Shown piece by piece: positions 10,416-55,930 of a stretch of DNA of 64,000 nucleotides. Numbering within the stretch: position 1 is the stretch's first letter; each line of letters begins with the position of its first letter. The position numbers and the translations under genes were made by a program. The notes beneath the pieces are model-generated. The model saw only the letters and a list, made by a program, of their open reading frames with translations. It ran no database searches and was not told the origin of the DNA. The stretch comes from Nitrososphaerota archaeon (lineage in GTDB: Archaea; Thermoproteota; EX4484-205; JAAOZP01): the NCBI GenBank assembly GCA_011605725.1, contig JAAOZP010000004.1:96001-160000 (forward strand), written 5' to 3'.

Positions 10416-10850
10416 ATGTTCAGTTGGGAGTCGGACTTTGAAGAAGCGGTTAAGACGATAAATATTTACCGTAAAAAACTTCAAACTTTGAAAACAATGA
10501 GGGAAAGCGGAAAAATATCCGACAAAACGGCGGATTTCCTTATGAAAGAGTTTGAAAACTACGTGAAGTCGATAGAGGCTAGGAAACAAACAGTGATGGA
10601 GAAGCTTGCAAACAGGATGAAAGAGGTTCAGCAGCAGATAGATGTTATTGAGAAGCTGATAGCTAACAATGAGATCAGGTACTCAGCACAGGAGATTACG
10701 GATGAAAGGTATAACAAGATAGCCACCGCCCTGAACTACGCCATGGAGGAGAGCAAGAACGAGTATGAAAGCCTTAAGGAAGCCATGGCGATACTAGAGA
10801 AGCTGCCCGACCTTATGAGTCAAGGCGAGAGCGAACCCTTGGAAACCTAG
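10416..10850 (+). CDS. CdvA-like coiled-coil protein
   Basis: MFSW..F, KKLQTL...GKIS..T, EIRY...I..E.Y pattern typical of TACK CdvA-like proteins. Confidence 0.7.
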   Translation: MFSWESDFEEAVKTINIYRKKLQTLKTMRESGKISDKTADFLMKEFENYVKSIEARKQTVMEKLANRMKEVQQQIDVIEKLIANNEIRYSAQEITDERYNKIATALNYAMEESKNEYESLKEAMAILEKLPDLMSQGESEPLET

Positions 10851-11179
10851 GGAGAAACCCCTGTTTCCTTAGATACTTTTTCAAGCCTTATGCCCTTGTC
10901 GAACACCAAGTCATATATCTGGTTAATCTGGGGACTCCCAAGAGCCCTATACTCGCTCTCCGTAAGGTAGACGATCAGCCTGGGGCTCCCCTGTCTGGGA
11001 ACGAGCCCAGCCTGCTGAAGACTGCTTAAAAGACCTCGAACCATCTCCTGAGCATACAGAACATCCTCAGAAGACCTGTCGAAAACACCTGAGGGAGCTA
11101 TCGACGTGAAATCCACTCTCACACCCGGCTCGCCCTCAACCTCAACGCTTCCTATGAAAGTTACTTTAACCCTAACCAT
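10847..11179 (-). CDS. Arcadin-1-like protein
   Basis: 110 aa; PRLIVYLTESEYRALG resembles the PRITLWLTEEE..VFG segment of Pyrobaculum arcadin-1 (from memory). Confidence 0.6.
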   Translation of the reverse strand: MVRVKVTFIGSVEVEGEPGVRVDFTSIAPSGVFDRSSEDVLYAQEMVRGLLSSLQQAGLVPRQGSPRLIVYLTESEYRALGSPQINQIYDLVFDKGIRLEKVSKETGVSP

Positions 11180-11291
11180 CTGCCTGTATGTTCACAAACC
11201 CGCTTAATAAAGTTATTTTGGGGCGTGTTGTAGTCACCGTCCGAATATTGGGAAAACCTTTTTAAGCATACCGCATCGGCTCAGCCTCTGA

Positions 11292-12611
11292 ATGGGAATG
11301 GTTAGTGAGAAAGATTTTGAGAAAAACGAGGAGGATAGGAAGAAGGCTGTTGAAACCCTCCTTCAACTGAGCAGGCAGAAGCATGATCCAGATGCTTGGA
11401 AGAAGCTGAAGGAAATACTATACCCTCCTAGAAGGCTGGATGTCGACGTGATTATAGATGACACTACTTTAAGAGAGGGACTCCAGATGGCTGGATTAAC
11501 GACACCGGTGGCTGAGGACTTGGCTGAGATAGGCAGGCTACTCTACGAGATTGGTGTTGAGAGAATAGAGGTTATGACATATACTCCGACTGATAGGGAT
11601 GCGATAAGAATAATGGTTGACAATGGGCTTGAAGGAGTGCTCGCAGGATGGAGTAGGGCTGATAAGCGTGATGTAGATGAAATCCTCAAGCTGGATTTGA
11701 AGCAGATAGGGATAAGCCATCCCGTATCATACTATCATTTCGCTAAATGGCCTGGAGAGCATGTTTATAGTCTAGTGAACAGAGTGGTTGAAACAGTCGA
11801 GTACGCGGTAGACCATGGTTTAAAGGTTTTCGTACACGGTGAGGACAGTACGAGAGCAGACTGGGATTTTGAAAGAAAGTTTGTGAACGCCATTGCAGAA
11901 GCCGGCGCAGAGGTTTATAGAATATGCGATACTTTAGGCGTTGGGTGCTCTCTTCCAGACCATCCTCTTCCAAACGGGATACCTGAAAAGATCAGGTTTT
12001 TGAGAAAAGAGACTAAAGTGAAGAGCCTAGAGATACATGCTCACGACGACCTAGGGAATGCTGTAGAGAACACTATGGCTGCTGTAAGGGCAGCCTCAGG
12101 ACTTTATGAAAAGTTTTACGTCAGCACAACATTCCTAGGAATAGGTGAAAGATCCGGTAATGCTGAAACTGAGAAAATAATACTCAACCTGTATATTCAC
12201 CATGGTCTTCAAAAGTGGAACCTATCGCTTTTAAGAGAGACGGCGAATTTCATAGCTACAGCGCTAAACTACCATCTTCCAACGAATAAAGCGATAGTCG
12301 GAGACTCGGCTTTCGCCCATGAGTCAGGAATCCACTTGCAGGGTATAAGGATAGCACCCGCGATCTACGAGGTTTTCCCACCGGAGTTAGTGGGGCAGAC
12401 GAGGAAGATCATAATTGGAAGGAGAACAGGTAAGCACGGGATAGTTTTGAAGCTCAGGGAACTCGTAAACCAGGATGTTGATGAGGACGACCCGAGGCTT
12501 AAGAAGCTGGTGGAACTTGTAAGAAGCAGCCTGCTTCAGGTTGACAGAAAATACTATTTGACTGAGGAAGAGTTTAAAAAGCTCGCGAGCGAAGCCGGTT
12601 TCAAATTTTAG
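11292..12611 (+). CDS. DRE-TIM synthase, probable Re-citrate synthase-like (no LeuA regulatory domain)
   Basis: DTTLREGLQ, HGEDSTRAD, RICDTLG..P.LP, HAHDDLG, GERSGNA, FAHESGIH. Confidence 0.8.
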   Translation: MGMVSEKDFEKNEEDRKKAVETLLQLSRQKHDPDAWKKLKEILYPPRRLDVDVIIDDTTLREGLQMAGLTTPVAEDLAEIGRLLYEIGVERIEVMTYTPTDRDAIRIMVDNGLEGVLAGWSRADKRDVDEILKLDLKQIGISHPVSYYHFAKWPGEHVYSLVNRVVETVEYAVDHGLKVFVHGEDSTRADWDFERKFVNAIAEAGAEVYRICDTLGVGCSLPDHPLPNGIPEKIRFLRKETKVKSLEIHAHDDLGNAVENTMAAVRAASGLYEKFYVSTTFLGIGERSGNAETEKIILNLYIHHGLQKWNLSLLRETANFIATALNYHLPTNKAIVGDSAFAHESGIHLQGIRIAPAIYEVFPPELVGQTRKIIIGRRTGKHGIVLKLRELVNQDVDEDDPRLKKLVELVRSSLLQVDRKYYLTEEEFKKLASEAGFKF

Positions 12612-14265
12612 AGTATTTCTCCACAATGGGAGTTAAATCCATCTCGAAGCCGGCCGCAGGATTCTCTAAACCGTTCAGCTCCAGCACTTCAGGATGAACC
12701 TCTCCCAGAACTCCTAGTGGATTATTGTTGAAAACAATTTTTGCAACCCTGCTTGGTGTAAACAATGGGTCTTCATCTTTCTCGAACAGGACTGGCTCAA
12801 TACAAAGATTGTTCAGCAGGCTTGACACGACGGACTTAATCTCTGAGAAGGATGCTGAAGAATGCATGGATACTCCTGCGAGAGAGACTCGCGCAACCAC
12901 AGATCCCTCAGAAACTCTTATGACTGGACCGGTTTCAAAAATCCTCTGGGGATACTTCTCATGCTTGTTGAAAGCAAGATTTCTAATCAAACCTGGGAGA
13001 AGAGAGTCCCTAAGCATCGTGAGCTCAAGGCTGGAGGAGTTTGCCAGAGTAGCCCTCTCGCCGACAGGCCTCCTAACCATGCGGTAATTCTGATCCTCGT
13101 TGGTAATCAGGAAGTTGAAGACCTCAGTGTAGCCTAAACCTATCATGATCAGCCTAGCCTTGTCTTGGACAACTGTTTCAGGATGCTTCAAACCTATCGT
13201 GGAAGCCTCGGGATAAGTTGGAGTCAGCCTCCAAAGACCATATCCTATAGCAACCTCCTCTACAAGGTCTACATTATGCATGATGTCTACCCTGTATGGG
13301 GGAACCCCGACTCTGAACACGTCCCCCTCGTTCACCACTGAGAACCTACATTTCAGAAGACTCCTGTAGATCTCAGCATTACTTAGATTCTCGCCCAGGA
13401 GAGAATTAACGTAACTCGCCTCAACACTCATGATCCTAGGGTTGAAATCCGGAAAAGTCTTCTCAGAACCATCGTCGTAGATTATCTTAACCGCCTCAAT
13501 ACTCGCACCCATGTCTTTAAACACGTATAGAAGTATGTTCAGGGCTCTTGAAGCATAATACTCGTCCAGAGCAGTTACATCTATGAAGAGGTTTCTGGTT
13601 TCAGGGGTTAACCGGGTAAGCTCAGAGTTTATTATAGGCGGGAAGGATAAAACCTCCCCGGTTGAATCAACTATCACAGGATACTTGTCGAAACCCTTGA
13701 TAATATGACCGTATTCCAAGCCCTTGTCAACCTCTTTTAAAACCTCGTTTAAAGTCATCCTTCTATCTATTCCAAGCGGCTTGAACGAAACCGCATCGGG
13801 CTCTGCAGCCACATAGTATACCGGGGGCCTAATCTTGTCCAAGTCATGTATCCCGATGGATACCTTACGCCTATTCCTACCAATACCCTGATGTAGGACC
13901 TCTTGAACATTAATCACCTCCTTTAAATCCTCCTCAGTGAGCTCAACATTCCTCACCACCGCTGAGCATAGAACACCCCTGATCCCTCTAAGCCTATTGT
14001 CGAAGTGGAAAACTATATTCGGACTTGAGAAAACAGCTTCAGGATATCCCAATCCAATCTCGAGAAAACCCGCGTACGCTCTGGCAATGCCAGCGTGGCT
14101 CGAGAAATCCGGCCTGTTCGGATTATACTCTATCTTAACGAATCCTTCACCAACATCCTCGATATCTGTCGCAAGCCACGGTAGGTCTTCGACAAGCTGC
14201 TTCAGCCCCACGTCAATCCCGAGAAACCTGCTCAGCCTCTCAGGGTAAACCTCTATCACCGGCAT
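12601..14265 (-). CDS. pheT: Phenylalanine--tRNA ligase beta subunit
   Basis: PNRPD, IGRNRRKVSIGIHDLD, PPYRVDIMHNVDLVEEVAIGYG, GEVHPEVL. Confidence 0.97.
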   Translation of the reverse strand: MPVIEVYPERLSRFLGIDVGLKQLVEDLPWLATDIEDVGEGFVKIEYNPNRPDFSSHAGIARAYAGFLEIGLGYPEAVFSSPNIVFHFDNRLRGIRGVLCSAVVRNVELTEEDLKEVINVQEVLHQGIGRNRRKVSIGIHDLDKIRPPVYYVAAEPDAVSFKPLGIDRRMTLNEVLKEVDKGLEYGHIIKGFDKYPVIVDSTGEVLSFPPIINSELTRLTPETRNLFIDVTALDEYYASRALNILLYVFKDMGASIEAVKIIYDDGSEKTFPDFNPRIMSVEASYVNSLLGENLSNAEIYRSLLKCRFSVVNEGDVFRVGVPPYRVDIMHNVDLVEEVAIGYGLWRLTPTYPEASTIGLKHPETVVQDKARLIMIGLGYTEVFNFLITNEDQNYRMVRRPVGERATLANSSSLELTMLRDSLLPGLIRNLAFNKHEKYPQRIFETGPVIRVSEGSVVARVSLAGVSMHSSASFSEIKSVVSSLLNNLCIEPVLFEKDEDPLFTPSRVAKIVFNNNPLGVLGEVHPEVLELNGLENPAAGFEMDLTPIVEKYSKI

Positions 14266-14277
14266 AGCTTAACCCTC
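14242..14277. repeat. Direct repeat copy 1 (pheS-end/pheT-start junction), left island boundary
   Basis: agggtaaacctctatcaccggcatagcttaaccctc; 34/36 identical to 21340-21375. Confidence 0.9.
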
Positions 14278-14350: not shown

Positions 14351-15145
14351 TCAATCCTCGAGTTTTTTGACGCTCTCCAGCTTCTTACGTAAATCGTTAA
14401 GATAGCGCTTGCTTATCCCAGGTACTCCGAGGCGTTGAGCTTCCCTAACAGCATCCGCTCTTTTCTTAATTTCTTCTAGCAACTTGTCCTCGCTCATGCC
14501 GCTGGAATTGAATGCTGAGTAGAAGAAATCCCAATCCTCGTGTGGCTTCAGATAATGCTTTACTTCAAAGCCATATTTTCCGCTGATTCTTTCAGCAATC
14601 TCCCTGACGTATTTTATGTAGAGCGCTATCATCCGCAACAGGCTTAGGGTCCTGCGTAAACGTTTATCCTCCATATCTATGCATTCTTCGAAATCCTTGC
14701 CCTCAGACAGACCCATTATGATCTCTTCGGTTTTCTCTATCCATTTCTGCACGAGCTCATCATACTTCTTCTTGTCTCCAATTTTTTCGGCTTCCTTTAG
14801 TTCCCTATCGAAAAGCGGTTGTATGGCCAAACTTATATGGAAATTTATATCGACCATGCCTTGTGAATATATCTCTATAGCTCCATTCTCATGGGCTTCG
14901 ATATAAGAAGAAAAGCCTAAGAGAGTCCAAGCGACCAGCATGCCTGAGCTGTCTTTCTTAGCCTCAATCCATGCCTCAAGGATTGCTCGTGGCGGCGAAC
15001 CCACCAGTCCTTCCTTTTCATATTTAACAAAACCCCCCTCTTCAAACTTCTTAAAGTCTTCCAATCTAACCTTTCCCTCAGACAGAAGCTCTACTAACCT
15101 TCTAAGGAATCCGATACTAAACTTTCCCTTAGTCACTTCATTCAT
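14351..15145 (-). CDS. Hypothetical protein, putative immunity protein
   Basis: Start overlaps the upstream nuclease ORF stop (ATGA); charged and cytoplasmic; homologous fragment at 55712-55930. Confidence 0.6.
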   Translation of the reverse strand: MNEVTKGKFSIGFLRRLVELLSEGKVRLEDFKKFEEGGFVKYEKEGLVGSPPRAILEAWIEAKKDSSGMLVAWTLLGFSSYIEAHENGAIEIYSQGMVDINFHISLAIQPLFDRELKEAEKIGDKKKYDELVQKWIEKTEEIIMGLSEGKDFEECIDMEDKRLRRTLSLLRMIALYIKYVREIAERISGKYGFEVKHYLKPHEDWDFFYSAFNSSGMSEDKLLEEIKKRADAVREAQRLGVPGISKRYLNDLRKKLESVKKLED

Positions 15146-16185
15146 CCTCTCCTTGTTATCTCTATGTAAGGATTCTTATAATTACCAACACTTTCAGGCA
15201 TGCTTAAACCTTCCTCTGAAGATGACCATATGTCATAGTCGAGTACGAACAGGACACCATATCTTGCTGTCTCAGACTCCATAAGGAAATCCGTGAGCTT
15301 CTTTCTCCCTTTGTTAACCTGCAGGTCAAAAACTGTAGGATCATGAATCGCAGTGCCCTTAACCTCGACGATGGCAGTAACCTCGCCTTTCTTAAAAGGA
15401 TCCTCATATTTATCGGTTATATCCCATTTCGCTTCTATCTGAAAATCTGGACCCACATTGCCCGCCCAATTATGAAGCCTTCTCGCATCTACAGCATCCC
15501 TGGGAATTCCTGTCTCCTCACAGAATTTATTGAGGAGTAAATCCTTTTTTTTCTCTACCCATAATTCTACGACCTGCCCGATCAACTCAGTATTTTCAGG
15601 ATCGGACTTAAGCATATTAAGACAACCCGCAAGGTCGTTAACTGTATCCGCATACTTCAACACTTCTACGTAAGCTATTTTAGTCGCATCCTCGGGCACT
15701 TTGACCGTCAATCGAGGATTAAAGCAATATGCATACTTATATTCACCATATTTATCGACAAAGCACACTATTAGAACCAACCTCTCTTTGAACTCAACAT
15801 TTTTATCTACCTTCTCAAGCCCCTGAACATAATAGCCGCTTAGAAAGATACGCTCTTTCAAACCTATGTCTTGATGTCCCTCGACGTTGCTAACGTCGTC
15901 AGCTATTTCTAATCTTTGAGGAACAATTATGTCTCTTCCGACAATACATGTAAACACATTTATATCATTTCCCATCCGATACTCAATAATCCATCGTCCC
16001 TTGTATACTTTAATACTACTAATAGGATGCGCTATAGGCTTATGCACGTACACTCTTCCGTCTTCATAAAAGGTGAAGATAATTGGTTCGCCATAAATAT
16101 CCTTAGCTCCTGTTACCACATCAAGAGCAGCCCCCCTCTCAGAGTTTCTAAGGTTCCAAGATTCCACCGGGATTTCGTTTAACAT
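15142..16185 (-). CDS. PD-(D/E)XK nuclease-like domain, probable C-terminal part of a polymorphic toxin
   Basis: GPDFQIEA...AIVEVKG...QV..G..KL..F; frame is open upstream (YNKIKAYDESDR) as far as the (GC)5 tract at 16222-16231. Confidence 0.65.
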   Translation of the reverse strand: MLNEIPVESWNLRNSERGAALDVVTGAKDIYGEPIIFTFYEDGRVYVHKPIAHPISSIKVYKGRWIIEYRMGNDINVFTCIVGRDIIVPQRLEIADDVSNVEGHQDIGLKERIFLSGYYVQGLEKVDKNVEFKERLVLIVCFVDKYGEYKYAYCFNPRLTVKVPEDATKIAYVEVLKYADTVNDLAGCLNMLKSDPENTELIGQVVELWVEKKKDLLLNKFCEETGIPRDAVDARRLHNWAGNVGPDFQIEAKWDITDKYEDPFKKGEVTAIVEVKGTAIHDPTVFDLQVNKGRKKLTDFLMESETARYGVLFVLDYDIWSSSEEGLSMPESVGNYKNPYIEITRRG

Positions 16186-16207
16186 CCTATCAGATTCATC
16201 GTATGCC

Positions 16208-19200
16208 TTAATCTTGTTGTAGCGCGCGCGCTAATATTCCTTCAGCACAATCTTTAGGCATCCAGAATTGACTCGACTTCGTATCCTTTCTAAATGAGAA
16301 TTCTACGACTCCTTTCTTACCCCCATACTCCCAATAGATCTTCGCCTTATATATCCCAGGTCCAACATCATTTCCTTTCCCCAAGCTCAACATAGCTCCA
16401 TCTCCCTTTTCCAACGTAACTTCACGTAACCTTTCCCAAGATACTTTATAATATTCTATACTACTTATCTTAGCTACTAGTTTATCTAGCACATCAGGAT
16501 TCTCGAGAACAGTAGTTAAGAAAATACCAGCAACATTTTCATCATACTTACCTTTAATGTCGAAATAGTTATCAATAATTTTCCCTATTTTAATCCCAAC
16601 TCCTTTCCTTGCATCTCCTTTTATCATTATCAGAATTTCATCTAGGGCTTTTATCTTGTCAGGGTCTTTTGTATTCTTGTTAAGCCAATTGTTCAAAGAT
16701 TCTATTGCATCGTCACCATCCTTAATCCACATCGAAACTATACTCCTTACGATTATCCCACCTTTTCCCTGAAACTCTTCTAGAGAATAATGCTTTATGA
16801 TCGTGCTAATTGCATTTAGTATCCTGCCTGAGCTTTCTACACTCGGAACGTTTTCTAAAGTGTGTTTTGAGATTTCCGAAGCTGTTTCAAGGATATCTTC
16901 AATCTTTGAAGGATTGTTTATTCTCTTTATTAGATCTCCAACGACGTCTCCGAACTTTCTGCTGTACTTATTCCCAAGTAAAAGGTCAACAACCTTGTGG
17001 AACGATGGCTTTAGCCTCAGCACCAATACATCAAATATTGCTGGGGTTATCCAGTTCCAAATCCCCCTGCCTACGATTCTGAGCACGTCCTCAACGCTAA
17101 GCGGCTTGCCTCCTGCTTTCTCAGCCCTTATCCTGTTGACCACCGCGTAGAAGGTAGTGACATATGCTGCGCAACTAACTATCGCTCCGACAACCCTTCC
17201 AGTGGCGTATCCGATTCTATAATCCCTATCTTTCGTCGAAGGAGGTTCCTTCAACCCGAAGGCTATTCTTATCTCATCCCATGAGACGTCTAGAGCCAGG
17301 TCTGAGAGCACGTTGGAGAGGAGGTTATCGTTAATATCCTTGGCTTCTAGCCTGAATATTTGGGAAAGCTCGAACAGCTCGTTAGCATGCTGGGCCATGC
17401 CGATTTCATTGAACTCCTTGCTCCTGCCCTCGCAGACATCTGCAATTTCGTTAAACGAGTCCATTGCAGCCAACGCGTTGTGGACATCTGTCCAGATTTC
17501 AGCTATGTTCATCGCTATACCAGTGGCGAGGATTGCTGGCGATGCTGCTACAGCCCACTTAGGCGGGAGAACGAAGCCGACAACAATCATTATTCCGCAA
17601 GTAACTATTATCCCCCATCCCTTTGAGACGAAGCCGTCCCAGAAGCCCCTCCAGAACATAGGCAGCTCGCCACTTCTAAAGCTCGCTTGAAGAGTTGCAA
17701 CAACCCTACCCCCGTGCTTCAAGTTAATGAAGATCGGATATTCTGCATCTTCCTCAAGTTGGACTAGGTGTAATGGGATCGAGCCGAATGCTGGAACGCT
17801 AATAGCATGCTCCTCCGGAATTCTCGCCGGCCCAGCGAAGACCTCTAGCTCATATTCCGCGTTGCATGCAGCATAGTTTCTTATCAATACCCCTTGTACT
17901 AAATCGCCCCCGCCATATGCAAGAGGATGGTAAATGAGTTCTATCTCTTTTCCATGCGAGCCTCTTGTCGCTGCTTTATCCAAGTCCCACCTAGTCTCTC
18001 CGGTATCCTCGTATTTGTAATCGTGGTCTTCCCACCCATTGTACTTTAGCCATTCATAGAATTCACCATTAACCGTTATGACTTCGCTCTGGTTCAGCAC
18101 CTCTTCCTTTAGCAGCTTAACCTCGTAATTGGAAGGTATCTTGCTTGGCTCAAGCCTATCATCCTCCAGGATACCGAGTAGCTTCTTAACCTCATCCTCA
18201 TGGAGTATTCTCTCATAGAGGAAACCTGGCTTGACATCGATCAACGCATATCTAACGTTCAGCGTCTTAGTCATTTTCGAGATATCGCTGACATTCTCAA
18301 TTGTCGATGTGAAACCATCAGGCGAAATAGGGATCAGCTCTACTCCATTGAAATCTTGGAGATACCCCGGCGCCATATCCGTCGTCATGAAGTATAACTT
18401 AACATGCGTAGCCCCTTGGTACCCTGGTACGAAGACCCTCTTGGTCTCATTGTAGCCCTCAACGTTTACAACATAAGTTCTCCATTCCTCCGGGGCAACG
18501 AAGCTCATGGTTGAGATCGTTGTTAACGCTGTGGATATGTATCTCTTTCCTTCTTCATCACAATAGACTGCTGTGATGTTGAGCTTGGCGATGGGAGAAA
18601 GGAGCTTCGTTAATATATTCTTCGACCATAAGCCAACGATGGCTCCGATTTCCAGCTCCTTTCTATCAACGTCTCCAGTTATGAGCAGCTTGACGTCTCT
18701 CGCCTTCCGTCCTCCCTTATTGAGAAGGGTTATTGTGAGGTTTGCGTACTTCGCTATCACTTGGCTTGAAAGCTTAACCTCAAGCCTCGGAGGCTCAGGT
18801 AGAACCTCTATGGTGTAGGTTACGGTCTTCCCCCCGTTCCAGAACACTAAATCCAAGTTGCCCGGCTGAACAACAGCAAAATAGACCGTAATCTTGTAAA
18901 CCCCAGGTTTCTTGGCTTTCAGGTAAAGCGGAGCGATGCGTGTAGGGCTTGGGAGTGGAGCCCATGTCTCAAACGCGTCACTATCGGAGAACCTAACACC
19001 CAGCAAGATTTCGTAGCTTCCTCGGATCTCCTGAGGATTCCTTATTTGGGCTGTTATCGTTATCGTATCACCGATCCCAACTTTGGTTGATGAGATTGTT
19101 GTATCAACTATTATTGGGTCGTAGGCTGGGAGGAGAACCCTGAACTCGCTTATTTGAGATTGCATGGCTTCGCGTGTTTCCTCAAAGTGACTCGGGACTG

Positions 19201-19879
19201 CGATGAGAAAATTTTCAGCAAAGTAGCCTTGGCTCAGGTTTGAGAATAGCCCTATTTTCATCCTAGCGGTCTTGTTAAGTATTTTACCGGTCTCTAGATC
19301 GATGAGGGTGAAGGTGTATGAATCAGGGTCGATGTGCCTGACTAAGTATGTCCTCTTCTTAGGATACCTATGAAGAATGTGGAAGACATTAGTTCCATTG
19401 CTTTCATATTTTATAGAGCTTACATCTTCCTCACTTCCATCCTTACCAATTGCCTTATAGGAGATTTCTACGGAGACGCTTCCATCGCTGCCTCTACGAA
19501 TATAGATTTTCTCATACTCGGGGATTATCGTGTAATCCTTAAGATCATAGTCTATTCGAGTCGGTAGCTTCAGAGTATTGTTAGCACTTTTTATGGTTCG
19601 ACGTATCTCCTCTTCTAAGCTTCCAATGGAAACCAGTTGAGCTATGAAGAACCAGAGCCTCTGCGCAAGCTCAACGGGAAAGCCCTCAGGCACTATGAAG
19701 CATGCCTCGGTTATCGAGCTGCTCGGCACCTTCCCCTTCCTTAATTCCTCCTCTATGAACTTTAATGCTGTTAGAGCATCCGTTTCCTCCGTGGCGTATG
19801 CCCTAAGGGTTAGAGCAGCGCTGAAGTTGGAGGTTAATATCAGGATTGCCAGGATTGCGGCTGATGCTTTCCTAAGCAT
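16208..19879 (-). CDS. Large secreted multidomain protein, N-terminal part of a probable polymorphic toxin (frameshifted at 16222-16231)
   Basis: Signal peptide; Ig/CARDB-like beta domains (NLTITLLNKGGRKARDV); Gly/Ala-rich hydrophobic helices (FWRGFWDGF, GYATGRVVGAIV). Confidence 0.7.
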   Translation of the reverse strand: MLRKASAAILAILILTSNFSAALTLRAYATEETDALTALKFIEEELRKGKVPSSSITEACFIVPEGFPVELAQRLWFFIAQLVSIGSLEEEIRRTIKSANNTLKLPTRIDYDLKDYTIIPEYEKIYIRRGSDGSVSVEISYKAIGKDGSEEDVSSIKYESNGTNVFHILHRYPKKRTYLVRHIDPDSYTFTLIDLETGKILNKTARMKIGLFSNLSQGYFAENFLIAVPSHFEETREAMQSQISEFRVLLPAYDPIIVDTTISSTKVGIGDTITITAQIRNPQEIRGSYEILLGVRFSDSDAFETWAPLPSPTRIAPLYLKAKKPGVYKITVYFAVVQPGNLDLVFWNGGKTVTYTIEVLPEPPRLEVKLSSQVIAKYANLTITLLNKGGRKARDVKLLITGDVDRKELEIGAIVGLWSKNILTKLLSPIAKLNITAVYCDEEGKRYISTALTTISTMSFVAPEEWRTYVVNVEGYNETKRVFVPGYQGATHVKLYFMTTDMAPGYLQDFNGVELIPISPDGFTSTIENVSDISKMTKTLNVRYALIDVKPGFLYERILHEDEVKKLLGILEDDRLEPSKIPSNYEVKLLKEEVLNQSEVITVNGEFYEWLKYNGWEDHDYKYEDTGETRWDLDKAATRGSHGKEIELIYHPLAYGGGDLVQGVLIRNYAACNAEYELEVFAGPARIPEEHAISVPAFGSIPLHLVQLEEDAEYPIFINLKHGGRVVATLQASFRSGELPMFWRGFWDGFVSKGWGIIVTCGIMIVVGFVLPPKWAVAASPAILATGIAMNIAEIWTDVHNALAAMDSFNEIADVCEGRSKEFNEIGMAQHANELFELSQIFRLEAKDINDNLLSNVLSDLALDVSWDEIRIAFGLKEPPSTKDRDYRIGYATGRVVGAIVSCAAYVTTFYAVVNRIRAEKAGGKPLSVEDVLRIVGRGIWNWITPAIFDVLVLRLKPSFHKVVDLLLGNKYSRKFGDVVGDLIKRINNPSKIEDILETASEISKHTLENVPSVESSGRILNAISTIIKHYSLEEFQGKGGIIVRSIVSMWIKDGDDAIESLNNWLNKNTKDPDKIKALDEILIMIKGDARKGVGIKIGKIIDNYFDIKGKYDENVAGIFLTTVLENPDVLDKLVAKISSIEYYKVSWERLREVTLEKGDGAMLSLGKGNDVGPGIYKAKIYWEYGGKKGVVEFSFRKDTKSSQFWMPKDCAEGILARALQQD

Positions 19880-20912
19880 TCCCTTCGCCTCCCGGCTTAC
19901 CTAGGGTTCTCCATCTCAGGAGTATGATGAGCAATGAGACCGTTGAGACAGCCAACGAAGATGCTAAGAGCCTCATGATGCTTAATTCTTCAGCAAGCCT
20001 TTCATTTTCCCTAGTCTTCTCTGAAACCATCTCCTGGTATTCTTTGAGAGAGACCCTTAGAAGAGCCGTGGTATTCTTCTCTATCTCCAGCTTATCCCTT
20101 GATGCTCTTAGCTCAACCTCGGAACTATTCAACATAATCCGAAGCCGCTCATTCTCCTCCTTCGACTCAAGGTGTTTTGAGAATGGGTTTCGTCGAGCTC
20201 AATAATCAGCGTCGCCGTTAGATTCGGTGCTTTGATGCTTAGCAAGAGCTTAGCCGGCTCCTTAAGCCCAGAGAACCTTGACCACTCAATTCTCGTTTCG
20301 TACAGTCCCTTCTCGCATACAACCTTACAATCCTCGATTAGAGATTCCACTCGGAGCGTTGCCCCCACCTCAACGCTATTGCATGGAGCGATTATTTTGA
20401 AGGAGATTTTTAGAGCATCTTCATCTATGAAGATAGAATTCGGAACTATCTCGATGAAATCAATAACCTCTTCGCCTTCAACCTTTATCATCGCCTGTCC
20501 CTCTTTGAAACTTCTTACCCCCTGTCTATAGCAGTCTATCAAGAAGCAGTTACCCGAAATAGTGTCGTTATCCACGGCTATCCAGAGCTGAGTCCCATTA
20601 AAGTCGAGCATGGGGTAAACGCAGACGTAGAAATCGCCCCTTATGGTTACGTTGGGCGCGCGCGGGGCGGGTAGCGTTTAATGGCCAGTTTACTGGGAGA
20701 AATGGGCGAATAAAGATCACTGCAAACGTTAAGAGGAATGGCGATGCTTCGGCGTAAATTTCGTTTACCAGCGGGTAAACACTATTTACCTTCGAGCAAA
20801 CAACATTTACCTTCAGTGGGCATTTGTCTACGTGCCCAGCGACTCCACGCATCTTTGAAACGGCTTTAATGGCTAAAAGGAAGATGCACAATGCTTTCCA
20901 TGGCCTAGCCAC
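19872..20912 (-). pseudogene. Secreted/membrane-anchored accessory gene broken into three ORFs
   Basis: ORFs 20598-20912, 20129-20611 and 19872-20135 join by two frameshifts: at the GC tract 20656-20664 (PNVTIRGDFYVCVYP reads into MLDF) and near 20190 (NPFSKHLESKEENERLRI reads into MLNS). Signal-like start, then coiled coil and C-terminal TM. Confidence 0.65.
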
Positions 20913-21339
20913 TATGCTAGTGTGCTCTAATAATTATAATTACTGATTCTGAAATCCTTTATCACATTGTTTATCAGATTTTTAGTACTCATAACCACCC
21001 GGGTTCTAAGAATTATAAAAACGTTAATTACTACATGGACCAGTGCGCACGGCAGCCCTGTTTTTAGCACATAGAGTCACCACTTTCCAGCTCGGGGAGT
21101 AACTTTAATCAGCCATATCGCCAGAGAGTTTTTTAGCGTATGCTCTGCAAAATGAGTAGGCTAGTGTTCCAGACAGATATTGATACATTCTGCAAGAGAG
21201 TTCCAAGAAGCATTTTTGGCGAGATACAGATTTCATCCCGGAGAAACTAAAAGAAATCTAATGATAAAAGCCGACATTAAGGTTTGGTTTTAAACTAAAG
21301 CAAAATGTCACATAACAGGAGACATAACGCTTGCTTCTA

Positions 21340-21375
21340 AGGGTAAACCTTTATCACGGGCATAGCTTAACCCTC
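21340..21375. repeat. Direct repeat copy 2 (pheS end + relic pheT start MPVIKVYP), right island boundary
   Basis: agggtaaacctttatcacgggcatagcttaaccctc. Confidence 0.9.
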
Positions 21376-22838
21376 CTCAACCAGCCTAAGTCGTTCTGAT
21401 AGAGGATACGAATATCGTTAACTCCCAGCTTAAGCATCAGCAAGCGCTCCAAGCCCCCTCCCCAAGCGAGAACAGGATAATCTATACCAAGAGGTTTAGT
21501 AACCTCAGGCCTGAAAATCCCCATGCCGCATAATTCAAGCCACCTACCGGCTTGCGGAACGTAGACGACGGAGTTCATACTCGGCTCAGTGTATGGGAAG
21601 TACGAGGGCCAGAATTGAACCTTTTCCAACCCGAGTTTCTTATAGAATTCTGTTAAAACTCCCTTTAGGTCTCTGAGGGTCACACTCTTATCCATTATTA
21701 TGCCCTCTATCTGGTGGAACTCTGCAAGGCTTTTGAAAGAGAGCCTCTCGTTTCTGAAAACCCTGTCGACGCTGAAAACCTTAACTGGAGGATCCCTATG
21801 CTCATACAGGTACCTTACTGATACGCATGTAGTATGTGTTCTTAACACGAGCCTCTTCGCAGCCTCCTCAGACCATTTCCCGCCCCATCCGGTTGAACCC
21901 GTCTCCCAGCCGTTTTCATGCGTTTTCCTCACTCTTTCAACAAGCTGCCTGTCAGCCAGCTCCGTGGAGGATGGGTGTGAAAGATAGAAGGTGTCCTGCA
22001 TCTCCCTAGCTGGATGGTCCTGCGGGGTGAAGAGGGCGTCGAAGTTCCAGAAGCATGATTCGACCAGTGGGCCCTTCGCCTCGGTGAAACCCATCTCTGT
22101 AAAGATTTCCTTAACCTCTTTGATGAATTCTGTTAACGGGTGTAGTTTCCCAGGGTATATAGGCTCAACATCAGTAGTGACATCGTACGGTTTAAGCTCA
22201 ACGTTTCTCCATTCCCCTGTTCTCAGGAGCTCAGGAGTCAACTGTGTTACTGCAACCTTCAGCTCAACAAGTCTACCTGCCTCAGTCAGAGAGACCAGTC
22301 TCTCAACCTTCTCCTCAACTTTAACTATGCCCCTTCCTGACAGGAGTCTAACAGCATCATTATCCAGCAGGCTGATGTCTAGAGGGCCTGACGCCAATGT
22401 CCTGACAACGGTTTCGTCAACCCCTTCAGGAGGCTCTTTCTCAACAACTATGTGAGGAACACCGTTTACAGCCCTGATTGAACCCCATCCCTTTCTACGC
22501 AGCCAGCCGAGCGCTATCGTGAAGAAAGACTCATCAGGATAAGTCTTCCGAGCCTCCTCCAGAGGCATAATGCCCCCGTTTCTCAGCACGAGTTTCAAAA
22601 GCCTTCTCTCAGGAAGCCCGTTTCTAGAATGGTATTCTCCCTCAACGGTTAACCTAGCATACTTGGTTTCCCTGGTTGAGACCCTTACTAAGCCTTTCTG
22701 AGAAAGGGAGGAGACTACGCTTGCTGCTGACGACTCATTCAAACCCGTGATCATGCAGAGTTCGCTGAAGCCCATGGCTCTACCGGTTCTTCTAAGAGCC
22801 TCTACAATGTCTTTCTCAAGCTTAGATTCCAGGCTCAC
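21354..22838 (-). CDS. pheS: Phenylalanine--tRNA ligase alpha subunit
   Basis: FWNFDALFTPQDHPAREMQDTFY, LRTHTT, EFHQIEG, YFPYTEPS, GIFRPEV; probable start is the GTG at 22838 after AGGAGG. Confidence 0.97.
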   Translation of the reverse strand: MSLESKLEKDIVEALRRTGRAMGFSELCMITGLNESSAASVVSSLSQKGLVRVSTRETKYARLTVEGEYHSRNGLPERRLLKLVLRNGGIMPLEEARKTYPDESFFTIALGWLRRKGWGSIRAVNGVPHIVVEKEPPEGVDETVVRTLASGPLDISLLDNDAVRLLSGRGIVKVEEKVERLVSLTEAGRLVELKVAVTQLTPELLRTGEWRNVELKPYDVTTDVEPIYPGKLHPLTEFIKEVKEIFTEMGFTEAKGPLVESCFWNFDALFTPQDHPAREMQDTFYLSHPSSTELADRQLVERVRKTHENGWETGSTGWGGKWSEEAAKRLVLRTHTTCVSVRYLYEHRDPPVKVFSVDRVFRNERLSFKSLAEFHQIEGIIMDKSVTLRDLKGVLTEFYKKLGLEKVQFWPSYFPYTEPSMNSVVYVPQAGRWLELCGMGIFRPEVTKPLGIDYPVLAWGGGLERLLMLKLGVNDIRILYQNDLGWLRRVKLCP

Positions 22839-22913
22839 CCTCCTACACCTATCGTTTAAACGTGCACAAGCAGTTTTTAAATTTGAAACCTTAATAATTC
22901 CTATTGGAGAAAT

Positions 22914-24710
22914 ATGCTGATGAAGCCCGGGGTCAAGCCTCCCGAGATAGTTGAGAAACTGATTTCCGCAGCACTTGGAAGGAGTAAAGCAAGCCTCGTC
23001 GTCGAGAGAGGAGCTTTGGTGAATGTTTTCACCGGAGAGATTGTTGAAAACACTGATATTGCTGTGGTCGACGACAGAATAGTGCTGGTAGGGAATGCTA
23101 AGCATACGATTGGGCCTGAGACAAAGATTATCGATGCTTACGGAAAATACTTGGCACCAGGGTTCTTAGACGGACATGTGCATGTGGAGAGCTCTATGCT
23201 GACAGTAACCCAGTTTGCAAAAGCTGTTCTACCCCACGGGACGACGACTGTTTTCATAGATCCCCACGAGGTTGCGAACGTGCTTGGGATAAACGGGGTT
23301 AGAATGATGCATGACGAGGGATTAGGCTTGCCTTTGAAAGTCTATGTTTCAATCCCCAGCTGTGTGCCGGCGACCGGTTCAGAGTTTGAAACCGCTGGGG
23401 CCGAAATAGGTTTAAAGGAGATTGAGGAAGCATTCTCATGGAGAAACACTATTGCACTGGGTGAAGTCATGAATTACCCTGGAGTATTATCCTTAAACCC
23501 CAAGATTATAGGTGAGGTTAAAGCGGCTTTGAAAAACGGCAGAATCGTGGAAGGACATTTCTTCGGAAACCTTAATGAAGAGCTTAACGCTTACATTGCA
23601 GCAGGAATATCCTCTGACCACGAGTCTGTAACTATGGAAGCTGGGCTTGCTAAACTACGACTAGGGATGCATGTTATGGTTAGGGAAGCATCAGCCTGGA
23701 GAGACCTGAAGGAGGTAATAAGAATGGTTACGGAGAAAAAGGTTGACGCGAGAAGAGTGTGTCTGGTTAGTGACGACAGGGAGCCTAACGACCTTTTGAA
23801 AGACGGACATATCGACCACATCGTTAGAAGAGCGGTGGAAGAAGGCGTTGACCCTGTGACCAGCATTCAAATGGCCACGTTGAACACTGCGGAACACTTT
23901 AAGGTCGACAGTGAGATAGGCGCCCTAGCACCAGGGATGATAGCTGACATACTGATCCTGAAAGACTTGAACAGGGTTCTCGTCGAAACGGTGATAGCTA
24001 ATGGCAGGATTGTCGCGAAGAACGGTAGGCTGGTGGCGGAAATACCTGAATACCAGTATCCTGAAGAAGCTAAGAGGACAATCAGGCTAGGCAGGAAGCT
24101 TGATGAAAACGATTTAAAGATAAGGGTTGGCCAAGACAAGGATGCTTTCAAAGTCAGGGTTATACAGGTTGTTGAAGCTAAGGCTATTACGAGGAGCATG
24201 CTCGCAAGTATTAGGCAGAGAAACGGTTTCCTAGAGGCGGATCCGGCTCAGGATATTGCTAAGGTAGCGGTTTTTGAAAGACACAGGGCCTCAGGCAACA
24301 GGGGAATAGGTTTCGTCAAAGGCTTCGGCTTTAAGAAGGGTGCCGTAGCATCCACAGTAGCACACGACAGTCACAACATGCTTATAGTAGGGGTGAACGA
24401 CGGCGACATGGCTTTAGCGGGAAACACGCTGGCAGAGGCTGGGGGAGGAATGGTAGCCGTGGAAAACAACCGGGTACTGGCTCTTCTAGAGCTCCCCATA
24501 GCTGGCTTAATGTCGGATAAGCCTGTTCAAGAGGTTGCAGCAAGAGTTGAAAAGCTTTCAGAAGCCTGGAGACAGCTTGGCTGCACGATGACCCGTCCAT
24601 TCATGACGATGTCCCTACTGGCTCTTCCAGTCCTTCCTGAGCTCAGGATAACTGATAAAGGGCTTATCGACACGGTTAATTTTAGAAGAGTAGACCTTAT
24701 AGTGGAATAA
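22914..24710 (+). CDS. ade: Adenine deaminase
   Basis: PGFLDGHVHVESS, DPHEVANV, LGEVMNYPG, SDHE, STVAHDSHN. Confidence 0.96.
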   Translation: MLMKPGVKPPEIVEKLISAALGRSKASLVVERGALVNVFTGEIVENTDIAVVDDRIVLVGNAKHTIGPETKIIDAYGKYLAPGFLDGHVHVESSMLTVTQFAKAVLPHGTTTVFIDPHEVANVLGINGVRMMHDEGLGLPLKVYVSIPSCVPATGSEFETAGAEIGLKEIEEAFSWRNTIALGEVMNYPGVLSLNPKIIGEVKAALKNGRIVEGHFFGNLNEELNAYIAAGISSDHESVTMEAGLAKLRLGMHVMVREASAWRDLKEVIRMVTEKKVDARRVCLVSDDREPNDLLKDGHIDHIVRRAVEEGVDPVTSIQMATLNTAEHFKVDSEIGALAPGMIADILILKDLNRVLVETVIANGRIVAKNGRLVAEIPEYQYPEEAKRTIRLGRKLDENDLKIRVGQDKDAFKVRVIQVVEAKAITRSMLASIRQRNGFLEADPAQDIAKVAVFERHRASGNRGIGFVKGFGFKKGAVASTVAHDSHNMLIVGVNDGDMALAGNTLAEAGGGMVAVENNRVLALLELPIAGLMSDKPVQEVAARVEKLSEAWRQLGCTMTRPFMTMSLLALPVLPELRITDKGLIDTVNFRRVDLIVE

Positions 24711-54682: not shown

Positions 54683-55351
54683 TTATGAAACTCTTCTTAA
54701 CGGGACTGTTAGGCTTAGCAAGCCGTTTACCGCGGAAACGTAGAACTCTGGGTCAACCTCTGAGACAAGGTCTCCTGCAACATCAATAACGTAAACCGTG
54801 TGAAGCCTGGAGTTCTTTATCTCCTCAAGACTGACTGGCGGATTCTTATAGTAAAGGTCGCAAAGGCTCTTTACCTCATGGATTTCCCCGCTCCCCCTAA
54901 ACCTCGGAGGCTTTGCGAGACACAGGGGTATTTGAAGAACGTAGTAGGGAGGGACCCCTAGGCCAAACTTGTCGACTAGAACACTGTACCTGGTTATTTT
55001 GCTGGCAACCCTAGCCCTGCAGTAGAGCTCAGGGTCTAAAGCGTTTTCAGGAGGCACGTATCCTGTTTCAACCTCAACAGCCAGAGTCCCGTCGCCCCTG
55101 GCAGCGTAAACATCGCAGACAAGCCCTCCTCCAAGGTCGTGTTCAACATCCACATCGTAGCCTTTCAGCATAAGGTGTTTAGCGCAGACAAGCTCCATCA
55201 CGGAATGGTTTATCTTGACAAGCCCCTTCCTGCTGAGCTCGACAAGCTTGTTCTTCAGGCTTTCAAGCCCATACTTAACATCCTGGTTTACGTTCCTCCC
55301 AATCCTGCTGATAAGGGTTTCAACGTCTTCTTCAAACTTGTTTCCAGGCAA
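54683..55351 (-). CDS. Conserved hypothetical protein, PD-(D/E)XK-like
   Basis: KINHSVMEL, CDVYA, VEVETG.VPP, ASKI.RYS. Confidence 0.7.
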   Translation of the reverse strand: MPGNKFEEDVETLISRIGRNVNQDVKYGLESLKNKLVELSRKGLVKINHSVMELVCAKHLMLKGYDVDVEHDLGGGLVCDVYAARGDGTLAVEVETGYVPPENALDPELYCRARVASKITRYSVLVDKFGLGVPPYYVLQIPLCLAKPPRFRGSGEIHEVKSLCDLYYKNPPVSLEEIKNSRLHTVYVIDVAGDLVSEVDPEFYVSAVNGLLSLTVPLRRVS

Positions 55352-55441
55352 CTTCTTTTAAACCTGTTTTCAACGGCTTTTAAAAATATTCAGCGCGAAA
55401 ATCAAGATTTTTAGAGCAGTAACTACAGAAGAACTTGCGAA

Positions 55442-55665: not shown

Positions 55666-55706
55666 TTAAAAAGGCGATATTCCCTTAGGCAGACTAATCA
55701 TCTCGT
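55666..55706 (-). pseudogene. Relic duplicate of the flxA 3' end
   Basis: Encodes EMISLPKGISPF*, versus EMLELPRGISPF* at 56007-56045. Confidence 0.75.
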
Positions 55707-55711
55707 CGCGC

Positions 55712-55930
55712 GCTAGGAGGGTTAGCGAAAAACATAGCTTAGAAGTCGAGTTCAGAATAGATACTGAATCGGGTTTCTTCATAACCTTCGACTCAACCGG
55801 GATGGGCGACGAGCAGTTAATCAACAAGGTCATGAAAAGAATTGATGCAATCGCTGAGGCAAGAAGGATGTTTCTAAGCGAGTGGATGATGAACAGGTTC
55901 CTAAAGGGTAAAGGAATAGAGGTTAAGTAA
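55712..55930 (+). pseudogene. 5'-truncated homolog of the putative immunity gene at 14351-15145
   Basis: ARRVSEKHSLEVEFRIDTESGFFITFDSTGMGDEQLINKVMKRIDAIAEARR aligns with AERISGKYGFEVKHYLKPHEDWDFFYSAFNSSGMSEDKLLEEIKKRADAVREAQR; no start codon for the homologous part. Confidence 0.75.

Follow-up and report, generated by a model that had tools for sequence, protein, structure and literature searches.

What is the island of roughly 7 kb that separates pheT from pheS in this Nitrososphaerota archaeon, and what might its genes do? The island lies in the window analyzed here, a stretch of 64,000 nucleotides of contig JAAOZP010000004.1, between pheT (12601-14265, minus strand) and pheS (21354-23105, minus strand), both identified by Pfam. 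Every island gene is on the minus strand, and the genes form three tightly coupled units at 14351-20912: the fragments of an accessory gene, a broken large gene and an intact partner gene. A reading of the bare sequence (the original prediction) had described these three units and proposed that they constitute a polymorphic toxin-immunity operon. Our preferred interpretation, held with moderate confidence, is that a lineage-specific archaeal module, working like a polymorphic toxin-immunity system, has decayed here to leave the island, since this best accommodates a nuclease tip with a co-diversifying coupled partner, cassette exchange, displaced fragments and surplus partners, many paralogs and an apparently exported tail.

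The large gene is read as two open reading frames (ORFs): a 1223-aa ORF that holds its N-terminal part (ORF1; 16208-19879, minus) and a 347-aa ORF that holds its C-terminal part (15142-16185, minus), the frame of which is open from 16230 with its first ATG at 16185. The resulting 362-aa C-terminal frame ends in a predicted PD-(D/E)XK nuclease domain (residues 197-362; 15145-15642, minus), which is preceded by two small beta-rich domains (15643-16230, minus; homologous to residues 1260-1450 of the intact 1617-aa orthologs). We aligned this frame with 16 relatives from same-genus genomes (alignment A2, 17 sequences), to all of which except the ortholog it is 22-47% identical. Two of the putative catalytic residues, D262 of the PDF motif (15445-15447) and E289 (15364-15366), are invariant, and the other two, E222 (15565-15567) and K291 of the EVK motif (15358-15360), are conserved in at least 90% of the 17 sequences. 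AlphaFold2 modeled the 362-aa frame from the A2 alignment with a predicted local distance difference test (pLDDT) score of 92 and resolved residues 1-190 into the small beta-rich domains. A VIA structural search with residues 197-362 returned almost exclusively restriction-endonuclease-fold proteins, including a lambda-exonuclease-like protein (3syy, Z 6.5), HsdR (3h1t, 6.4), Hjc (1gef, 5.9), SwaI (5.5), a CdiA-CT toxin (4g6u, 4.9) and Cas4 (4.3), and the best local Foldseek match was SwaI (prob 0.94). The Z values are moderate, and the assignment of the modeled domain to the PD-(D/E)XK superfamily, which we consider sound, rests on fold and motif together. Both the PDF...EVK domain noted in the original prediction and the nuclease fold that it asked to be looked for are thus borne out by the model.

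The third gene, ORF3 (14351-15145, minus), encodes a putative immunity protein of 264 aa, and its start overlaps the stop of the preceding nuclease frame as ATGA (15142-15145), an arrangement of translational coupling that had been correctly recognized from the sequence. ORF3 carries neither a signal peptide nor a transmembrane (TM) segment. Alignment of the partner family (A5) revealed invariant residues W59, G88, F212, E225 and R229, and a coupled downstream partner gene is present in 22 of the 23 full loci. Behind alternative tails sits a second, unrelated partner family, so that two partner families track two nuclease types. When the partner profile was run against 1.84 billion representative proteins it recovered only 125, mostly 200-250 aa in length or fragments, a few of which are fused tandem copies. 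Three proteins (P0045-P0047, 437-445 aa) each join two partner-family units in a single chain and in this recall polyimmunity proteins. ORF3 had no usable match in ESM Atlas, and a single-sequence search with it returned its own cluster alone.

None of the six window ORFs matched Pfam, NCBIfam or PADLOC (PADLOC-DB 2.0, a library from 2023 that may lack recent systems such as SNIPE) at E ≤ 0.1, a threshold at which the Pfam Tox-REase and Imm profiles were likewise silent. Six divergent homologs gave no Pfam or NCBIfam family at E ≤ 0.01, the intact accessory protein and the helical mid domain described below were also without any family match, and sequence searches of the PDB with the C-terminal piece and the partner-family profile found nothing meaningful. 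The original prediction had recognized neither scaffold nor immunity family, and by these searches of Pfam, NCBIfam, PADLOC and PDB the scaffold, the nuclease subfamily and the partner family all go unrecognized; the set of three genes appears to be previously undescribed.

The remainder of the large protein has the features expected of a surface protein anchored in the membrane. Its N-terminus, MLRKASAAILAILILTSNFSAALTLRAYA, shows a hydrophobic core (Kyte-Doolittle value 1.99) and an AxA-like end, and a signal peptide is predicted at residues 1-29 (within 16208-19879, minus). The ectodomain that follows (residues 30-745), glycosylated to judge from its sequons, is modeled with an alpha/beta domain first and then three or more Ig-like sandwiches. 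AlphaFold2 gave residues 24-1223 an overall pLDDT of 64 with reasonably defined domains, and the sandwiches matched Ig-like folds in VIA (Z 9-11; root-mean-square deviation 2.2-2.9 over about 90 residues) and in Foldseek, in line with the Ig-like domains and signal peptide originally proposed. Homology to alpha-2-macroglobulin, complement or TEP proteins was considered and rejected, with TM-scores of about 0.07-0.1 (Foldseek, VIA) and only tandem Ig-like sandwiches in common. Hydropathy predicts three Gly/Ala-rich TM helices, matching the hydrophobic helices of the original prediction: TM1 (residues 754-772; 17564-17620, minus), TM2 (777-795; 17495-17551, minus) and TM3 (896-914; 17138-17194, minus). 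TM2 and TM3 are separated by a long acidic helical hairpin of net charge -10, and TM3 is followed by NRIRAEKAGGK and then by the mid domain, a sequon-free, all-alpha region of approximately 200 residues that is well predicted in the model (about 16460-17092, minus). The columns that are invariant across the family concentrate in and next to the membrane segments, where TM3 contributes a GxxxGxxxG motif, and the positive-inside rule predicts that the N-terminal part and the hairpin lie outside and the tail inside. In the intact accessory protein, known from relatives, a hydrophobic segment at the N-terminus precedes an ecto part and a coiled coil, and a TM anchor closes the protein at its C-terminus. 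A search of ESM Atlas with the core and mid domain gave sub-noise scores of 0.77-0.79, among them a PT-TG cluster, which we did not use as evidence.

The original prediction had suggested asking whether C-termini and downstream genes vary among homologs, and we found that they both vary and co-vary. The 23 complete loci keep the order accessory gene, large gene and partner gene, with overlaps or gaps of a few bases, and homologs that are 66-88% identical upstream have C-termini 20-31% identical, while others only 25% identical upstream have C-termini 34-45% identical. Percent identity to P0001 (1617 aa), the closest homolog of the large protein, was computed by segment and distinguished three mosaic groups: group A (ectodomain 72-88%, core 69-81%, mid domain 45-55%, C-terminus 20-31%), group B (62-66%, 28-31%, 11-26% and 12-32% over the same segments) and group C (25%, 41-44%, 48-57% and 34-43%). 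Spearman correlations between the pairwise-identity matrices of the 23 loci, which come from non-independent pairs and are descriptive values, not tests, were high for accessory protein and ectodomain (0.88), for core and mid domain (0.73) and among beta domains, nuclease and partner (0.76-0.83), and low between ectodomain and nuclease (0.23) and between accessory protein and partner (-0.14); partner divergence accordingly follows the nuclease tip and not the ectodomain. These values point to three linkage blocks, namely accessory protein with ectodomain, membrane core with helical domain, and beta domains with nuclease and partner.

Within the window, the segment 14300-16900, which spans the mid domain, the beta domains, the nuclease and ORF3, shares 95-98% DNA identity with the sister species G002 against a background of 83-87%, and P0001 reaches 99% identity in the mid and C-terminal parts as against 88-90% in the ectodomain and core. 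The GC fraction is 0.36 at 16250-16999 versus 0.50 at 17000-17999, in agreement with the AT-rich 3' part of the large gene noted originally. The excess identity over background points to a recent exchange of this 3' cassette, which its lower GC content fits. Overall, the comparisons of homologs show that recombination reshuffles the three blocks and moves nuclease and partner cassettes between loci and species.

Archaeal N-glycosylation acts on N-x-S/T sequons at the outer face of the membrane. We compared observed sequon counts with those expected from composition and found, across the 23 loci, a marked excess in the ectodomain (239 observed, 85 expected) and accessory proteins (101 and 33) and a near absence in the mid domain (3 and 26) and C-terminal region (2 and 35). 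An alignment of 37 rows (window ORF1 and 36 database homologs) gave the same pattern, with 329 observed and 125 expected in the ectodomain, 2 and 41 in the mid domain, and 3 and 48 in the C-terminal region. Enrichment was thus 2.6-2.8-fold in the ectodomain, a level in keeping with an extracellular archaeal protein, and 3.1-fold in the accessory protein. Together, the mid and C-terminal regions held 5 sequons versus 61-89 expected. The neutral ratio is 0.89, both in the partner protein and in 312 cytoplasmic-like proteins of the genome, and the reversed motif [ST]-x-N was at expectation everywhere. Among 17 representatives below 45% identity, the whole tail held a single sequon against 40.7 expected (Poisson P about 1e-16), the expectation already including the 0.89 baseline. 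In the hairpin between TM2 and TM3 the sequon count depends on lineage, with enrichment in one group and depletion in the others, and this weakly supports its location outside. Because a purely cytoplasmic domain has no reason to avoid sequons, we infer that the tail of approximately 700 residues after the last TM helix is exposed outside at some stage and must stay unglycosylated.

How, then, does the copy in the window differ from the intact module? At the syntenic site of G002 the order is pheS, accessory gene (409 aa), large gene (1617 aa), partner gene (264 aa) and pheT, and intact relatives, all Brockarchaeota/Thermoproteota metagenome-assembled genomes (MAGs), encode a 409-aa accessory protein, a large protein of ~1,600 aa and a partner of ~230 aa. 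The 43 database homologs of the 1223-aa ORF all come from such MAGs, apart from one partial Infirmifilum protein; complete large proteins are 1560-1630 aa long, and the intact orthologs have 1617 aa and not the ~1580 aa estimated in the original prediction by joining the pieces across one frameshift. Residues 1-1217 of P0001 align with ORF1 at 90% and residues 1260-1617 with the following ORF at 99%, leaving 42 residues unmatched in between. The lesion is a deletion scar at 16221-16232, inside TAGCGCGCGCGCTA, where 12 nt with (GC)5 replace approximately 125 nt (42 codons in the intact orthologs), a net loss of 113 nt that shifts the frame. Logan contigs from four hot-spring metagenome runs (four studies) were placed on 15600-16900, with identities of at least 99% in three runs and 95-99% in the fourth, and all four show 125 letters at this site, not 12. 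The intact allele is therefore the common one, and the scar allele belongs either to this assembly alone or to a minor variant.

The accessory gene is also broken, as had been noticed. Comparison with G002 places a deletion junction at 20656-20677, at which approximately 548 nt were lost, removing the upstream region, the start codon and codons 1-148 with the signal/anchor segment. The remnant, located by tblastn with the G002 accessory protein (19872-20656, minus), corresponds to residues 149-409 of the 409-aa ortholog; it retains the ecto part, the coiled coil and the TM anchor at the C-terminus, and a frameshift near 20184 splits it. It appears in the window as ORF fragments at 19872-20135, 20129-20611 and 20598-20912 (all minus), the last of which is a 104-aa GTG ORF that runs across the junction and corresponds to nothing in the intact accessory gene. 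ORF3, in contrast to the two inactivated genes, is intact and 94% identical to its G002 ortholog, and the nuclease-coding 3' cassette is intact as well. This copy is therefore a pseudogenized, decaying locus in which the accessory and large genes are inactivated and the partner is kept, and it shows how such modules decay: the presumed weapon is lost and the presumed antidote retained, the usual pattern for a decaying locus.

We also weighed phase variation by slipped-strand events at the (GC)5 tract, which would switch the toxin gene on and off and would suit a dinucleotide repeat placed exactly in the overlap of the two frames, where one extra GC unit would arithmetically restore the frame. 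We rejected it as extremely improbable because the intact allele carries 125 unrelated nucleotides at this site and not a longer GC run; moreover, the read-through product would miss 42 residues at conserved positions, a GC-length variant occurred at the site in none of the four metagenome populations, and (GC)4-5 motifs are common genome-wide and mostly intergenic. The (GC)5 sequence occurs ~35-40 times in the 2.2-Mb genome (G000), where about one copy is expected by chance, mostly in non-coding stretches and typically as A(GC)5TA(A), for example at C4:34292, C4:164530, C14:20940 and C20:38256. One copy lies 46 nt downstream of an orphan nuclease and partner pair on C20, and the motif may mark rearrangement junctions. 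In one metagenome run, X3, an abundant contig matches window positions 15600-15796 and then runs on as GCGCGCGCGCTAAGC.

The family is found in 11-12 of 16 same-genus genomes, where a 2-Mb genome can contain as many as 17 matching stretches. Among the 400 phylum genomes sampled it is otherwise nearly absent: a neighboring family supplied one positive genome, and the other approximately 380 genomes one more. Further paralogs, including at least one of full length, occur in the genome of the window. On C20 of G000 a stand-alone 167-aa nuclease with an overlapping 219-aa partner sits among metabolic genes, and at one locus of G016 (L040, G016:C1) a partner is followed by a displaced nuclease 3' fragment and a second partner (11476-11730, 11922-12338). 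Six-frame profile searches of G000 recovered about 12 partner-like genes or fragments versus 3-4 nuclease domains, including lone partner genes (C12, C11) and remnants with a nuclease stub (C7, C10, C19).

Several isolated observations concern such orphans. Two tandem partner genes (10754-11224 and 11434-11937) stand behind an intact large gene at locus L041. The window itself holds an 86-aa partner fragment at 55670-55930 (plus), with the motif FDSTGMGDEQL...KRIDAIAEA and no adjoining nuclease gene; a nearby 224-aa ORF (54683-55357, minus) has a CDVYA...AVEVETG pattern and might be nuclease-like. At G000:C20:18044-25387 (minus), a 2448-aa open frame contains a region like the pre-nuclease beta domains (E 8e-22) and is followed by a partner-like gene (C20:17466-18047, minus), which may represent a second scaffold type using the same cassette. 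The orphan partner at G000:C7:379800-382800 comes with a 77-aa nuclease stub, and the genes beside it resemble, by eye, toxin-antitoxin pairs of the nucleotidyltransferase/HEPN and AbrB/PIN types.

If the island does derive from a toxin-immunity module, its surface part would consist of the accessory protein, glycosylated and anchored in the membrane, together with the Ig-rich hypervariable ectodomain, perhaps with a role in recognition or adhesion, and the conserved three-helix core would anchor the large protein. The tail of about 700 residues, with its helical domain, beta domains and nuclease, would be exported or exposed and might act as a DNase against neighbors, while the coupled cytoplasmic partner would bind and neutralize its cognate nuclease. 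Recombination reshuffles the three blocks and carries nuclease and partner cassettes between loci and species, and in this genome deletions have inactivated the accessory gene and the putative toxin gene, leaving the partner and the 3' cassette. We tentatively entertain, as a doubtful extension, that the family is a self-contained contact-dependent delivery machine in which the hypervariable glycosylated ectodomain, with its co-varying accessory protein, would recognize neighbors and tell kin apart, the conserved GxxxG-rich core would form a conduit, and the sequon-free tail (a helical translocation domain and the nuclease) would stay in or at the producer until contact and then be threaded out into the neighbor, with protection by the cognate partner alone. 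Were this so, it would be a Sec-started, autotransporter-like counterpart of contact-dependent inhibition (CDI) in organisms without an outer membrane.

Several points weigh against the toxin-immunity interpretation, and the operon as originally proposed survives only in part: the co-varying tip and partner, the nuclease fold, the orphans and the sequon avoidance speak for it, and the variable head, the single tip fold, the lack of a known trafficking domain and the pseudogenized state of this copy do not. The N-terminus, which was expected to be a conserved trafficking region, is the variable part, with a hypervariable head that recombines with the accessory gene and a conserved membrane core. 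Every tail so far, in a limited sample of about 60 proteins, is PD-(D/E)XK-like and not of unrelated folds, whereas bacterial polymorphic toxins carry many unrelated toxin folds; some homolog tails were missed by the hidden Markov model of the tip, yet these show D...ExK patterns. No known secretion, trafficking, repeat, pre-toxin or releasing-protease domain was found by Pfam or NCBIfam in the window proteins or the six homologs. The predicted three-TM topology places the nuclease tail in the producer cytoplasm at rest, and export as suggested by the sequons conflicts with this simple topology; a fourth pass or a regulated translocation step would therefore be needed, for which an invariant WNWITPxIxD segment, short and poorly modeled, is a candidate fourth pass. 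The model of the large protein is of moderate confidence (pLDDT 64), the genomes compared are MAGs of related organisms so that counts are not independent, and the broken state could partly reflect one assembly, the scar allele being absent from the four metagenome runs.

The topology also fits the main rival, a membrane-anchored antiviral sensor-nuclease analogous to SNIPE (PMC13190303), in which the surface part would act as sensor or decoy, the core would relay a signal, and a cytoplasmic nuclease freed from ORF3 would cut viral or host DNA in an abortive infection. A nuclease left beside its cytoplasmic partner and hypervariable surface domains suited to an arms race with viral receptor-binding proteins are both in keeping with such a role, and the island site takes up a PIN/RHH pair in another species. 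A cytoplasmic tail, however, should be sequon-neutral at a ratio of 0.89 and not 0.02-0.06, and five to ten divergent paralogs per genome, orphan partners and displaced nuclease fragments are atypical of defense sensors. PADLOC matches were zero (with the 2023 library), and a scan of viral contigs with the membrane core, which finds close relatives only, gave no relative. We consider this rival unlikely, disfavored by the sequon result and the orphan partner genes.

The same sequon-free and presumably exported tail, together with the Ig-rich glycosylated ectodomain and the cytoplasmic partner, would also suit a variable adhesin or envelope protein whose secreted nuclease serves extracellular DNA use, in nutrition or biofilm remodeling, with ORF3 protecting the producer before export, in the manner of barstar with barnase, and no role in competition. 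The mosaicism, the co-diversification of nuclease and partner, the interspecies cassette exchange, the many paralogs and the excess of orphan partners are not expected of such a protein, which makes this explanation improbable. The stand-alone pair and remnants at unrelated sites, one of them within an island of toxin-antitoxin-like genes, and the tight ATGA coupling of the pair instead recall a selfish toxin-antitoxin (addiction) cassette with many insertion sites, among them the 3' ends of a family of surface-protein genes of unrelated function. This is quite improbable, as almost every one of the ~60 large proteins carries the nuclease fused in frame at one and the same position, the preceding 300-aa helical domain is also sequon-free and so selected together with the nuclease, and the partner, at 200-260 aa, is larger than the nuclease domain and matches no DNA-binding antitoxin family.

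In barnase-barstar and in the colicin E DNases with their Im proteins, an exported nuclease is neutralized by a co-expressed cytoplasmic protein; in the colicins, a single nuclease fold has diversified alongside the immunity protein cognate to it. The folds and sequences are unrelated to ours, and the nuclease described here forms the tip of a membrane protein of 1,600 aa. Among the closest known systems are the bacterial polymorphic toxins (CdiA/CdiI, Rhs, WapA/WapI, LXG; PMC3482391), with which the family shares a C-terminal nuclease on a large protein that is exported or at the surface, a linked downstream partner that changes with the tip, replacement of tip and partner by recombination, orphan cassettes, displaced tip fragments, surplus partners and the presence of several paralogs in a genome; its active site also has the E, D, ExK pattern of the Tox-REase families (PMC3482391). 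It differs in having no RHS/YD, FilH, HINT, PT-TG, MafB-N, LXG or Pfam Tox-REase/Imm matches, in a hypervariable head that recombines with an upstream accessory gene, the conserved element being the three-helix membrane core, and in an archaeal host to whose lineage it looks native, whereas the few polymorphic toxin systems that were found in archaea have been argued to be bacterial acquisitions (Zhang et al. 2012, PMC3482391).

Within the archaea, the closest precedent is the VARTIG module of Thermococcales (Makarova et al. 2021, PMC8416519), likewise a lineage-specific hypervariable module with a large signal-peptide, multi-Ig protein, variable downstream genes and recombination between genomes, the organization of which its authors liken to polymorphic toxin systems. 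By its description VARTIG (arCOG07710 modules) is set apart from the present family: its hypervariable part is a C-terminal Ig domain and it has no known toxin or nuclease, whereas the family here has a C-terminal nuclease with a co-varying partner, Ig-like domains in the N-terminal half, a multi-pass membrane core, an upstream membrane-anchored accessory gene and another host lineage. SNIPE (PMC13190303) is also a membrane-tethered nuclease and a possible model if the tail stays cytoplasmic, but it is a bacterial single-protein antiphage defense without Ig ectodomain, partner gene or cassette polymorphism, and sequon avoidance in the tail argues against a permanently cytoplasmic location here.

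Very little is known of how archaea fight or recognize each other, and what we describe is an apparently native, strongly expanded family with a three-block recombination architecture. Its sequon signature, rich in the head and nearly absent from the tail, makes the question of export directly testable. If confirmed, the family would offer a system in which to study how hot-spring Thermoproteota/Brockarchaeota antagonize neighbors on contact or discriminate kin, and a source of thermostable nuclease-inhibitor pairs, and sequon avoidance could become a general way to spot unglycosylated proteins that cross the archaeal envelope.

The site of the island is itself variable. An imperfect direct repeat of approximately 43 bp, which duplicates the junction of the pheS stop and pheT start, borders the island on the pheT side (14235-14277) and the pheS side (21333-21377), as found by blastn cross-matches and pairwise alignment, and no integrase was seen at the island. 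G002, the other carrier of the module at this site, is no closer to this genome than several genomes with an empty site (PheT 89% versus 91-92%). The pheS gene abuts pheT directly in 13 of 17 genus genomes and the remaining four carry inserts, which identifies the junction as an insertion hot spot in the genus: the module in G000 and G002, an RHH and PIN (VapBC-like) pair in G016 (L051 3162-4567), and genes of sugar-acid metabolism in G009 (L061 9800-13089), encoding an enolase-superfamily protein, a PfkB kinase and an RraA-like aldolase.

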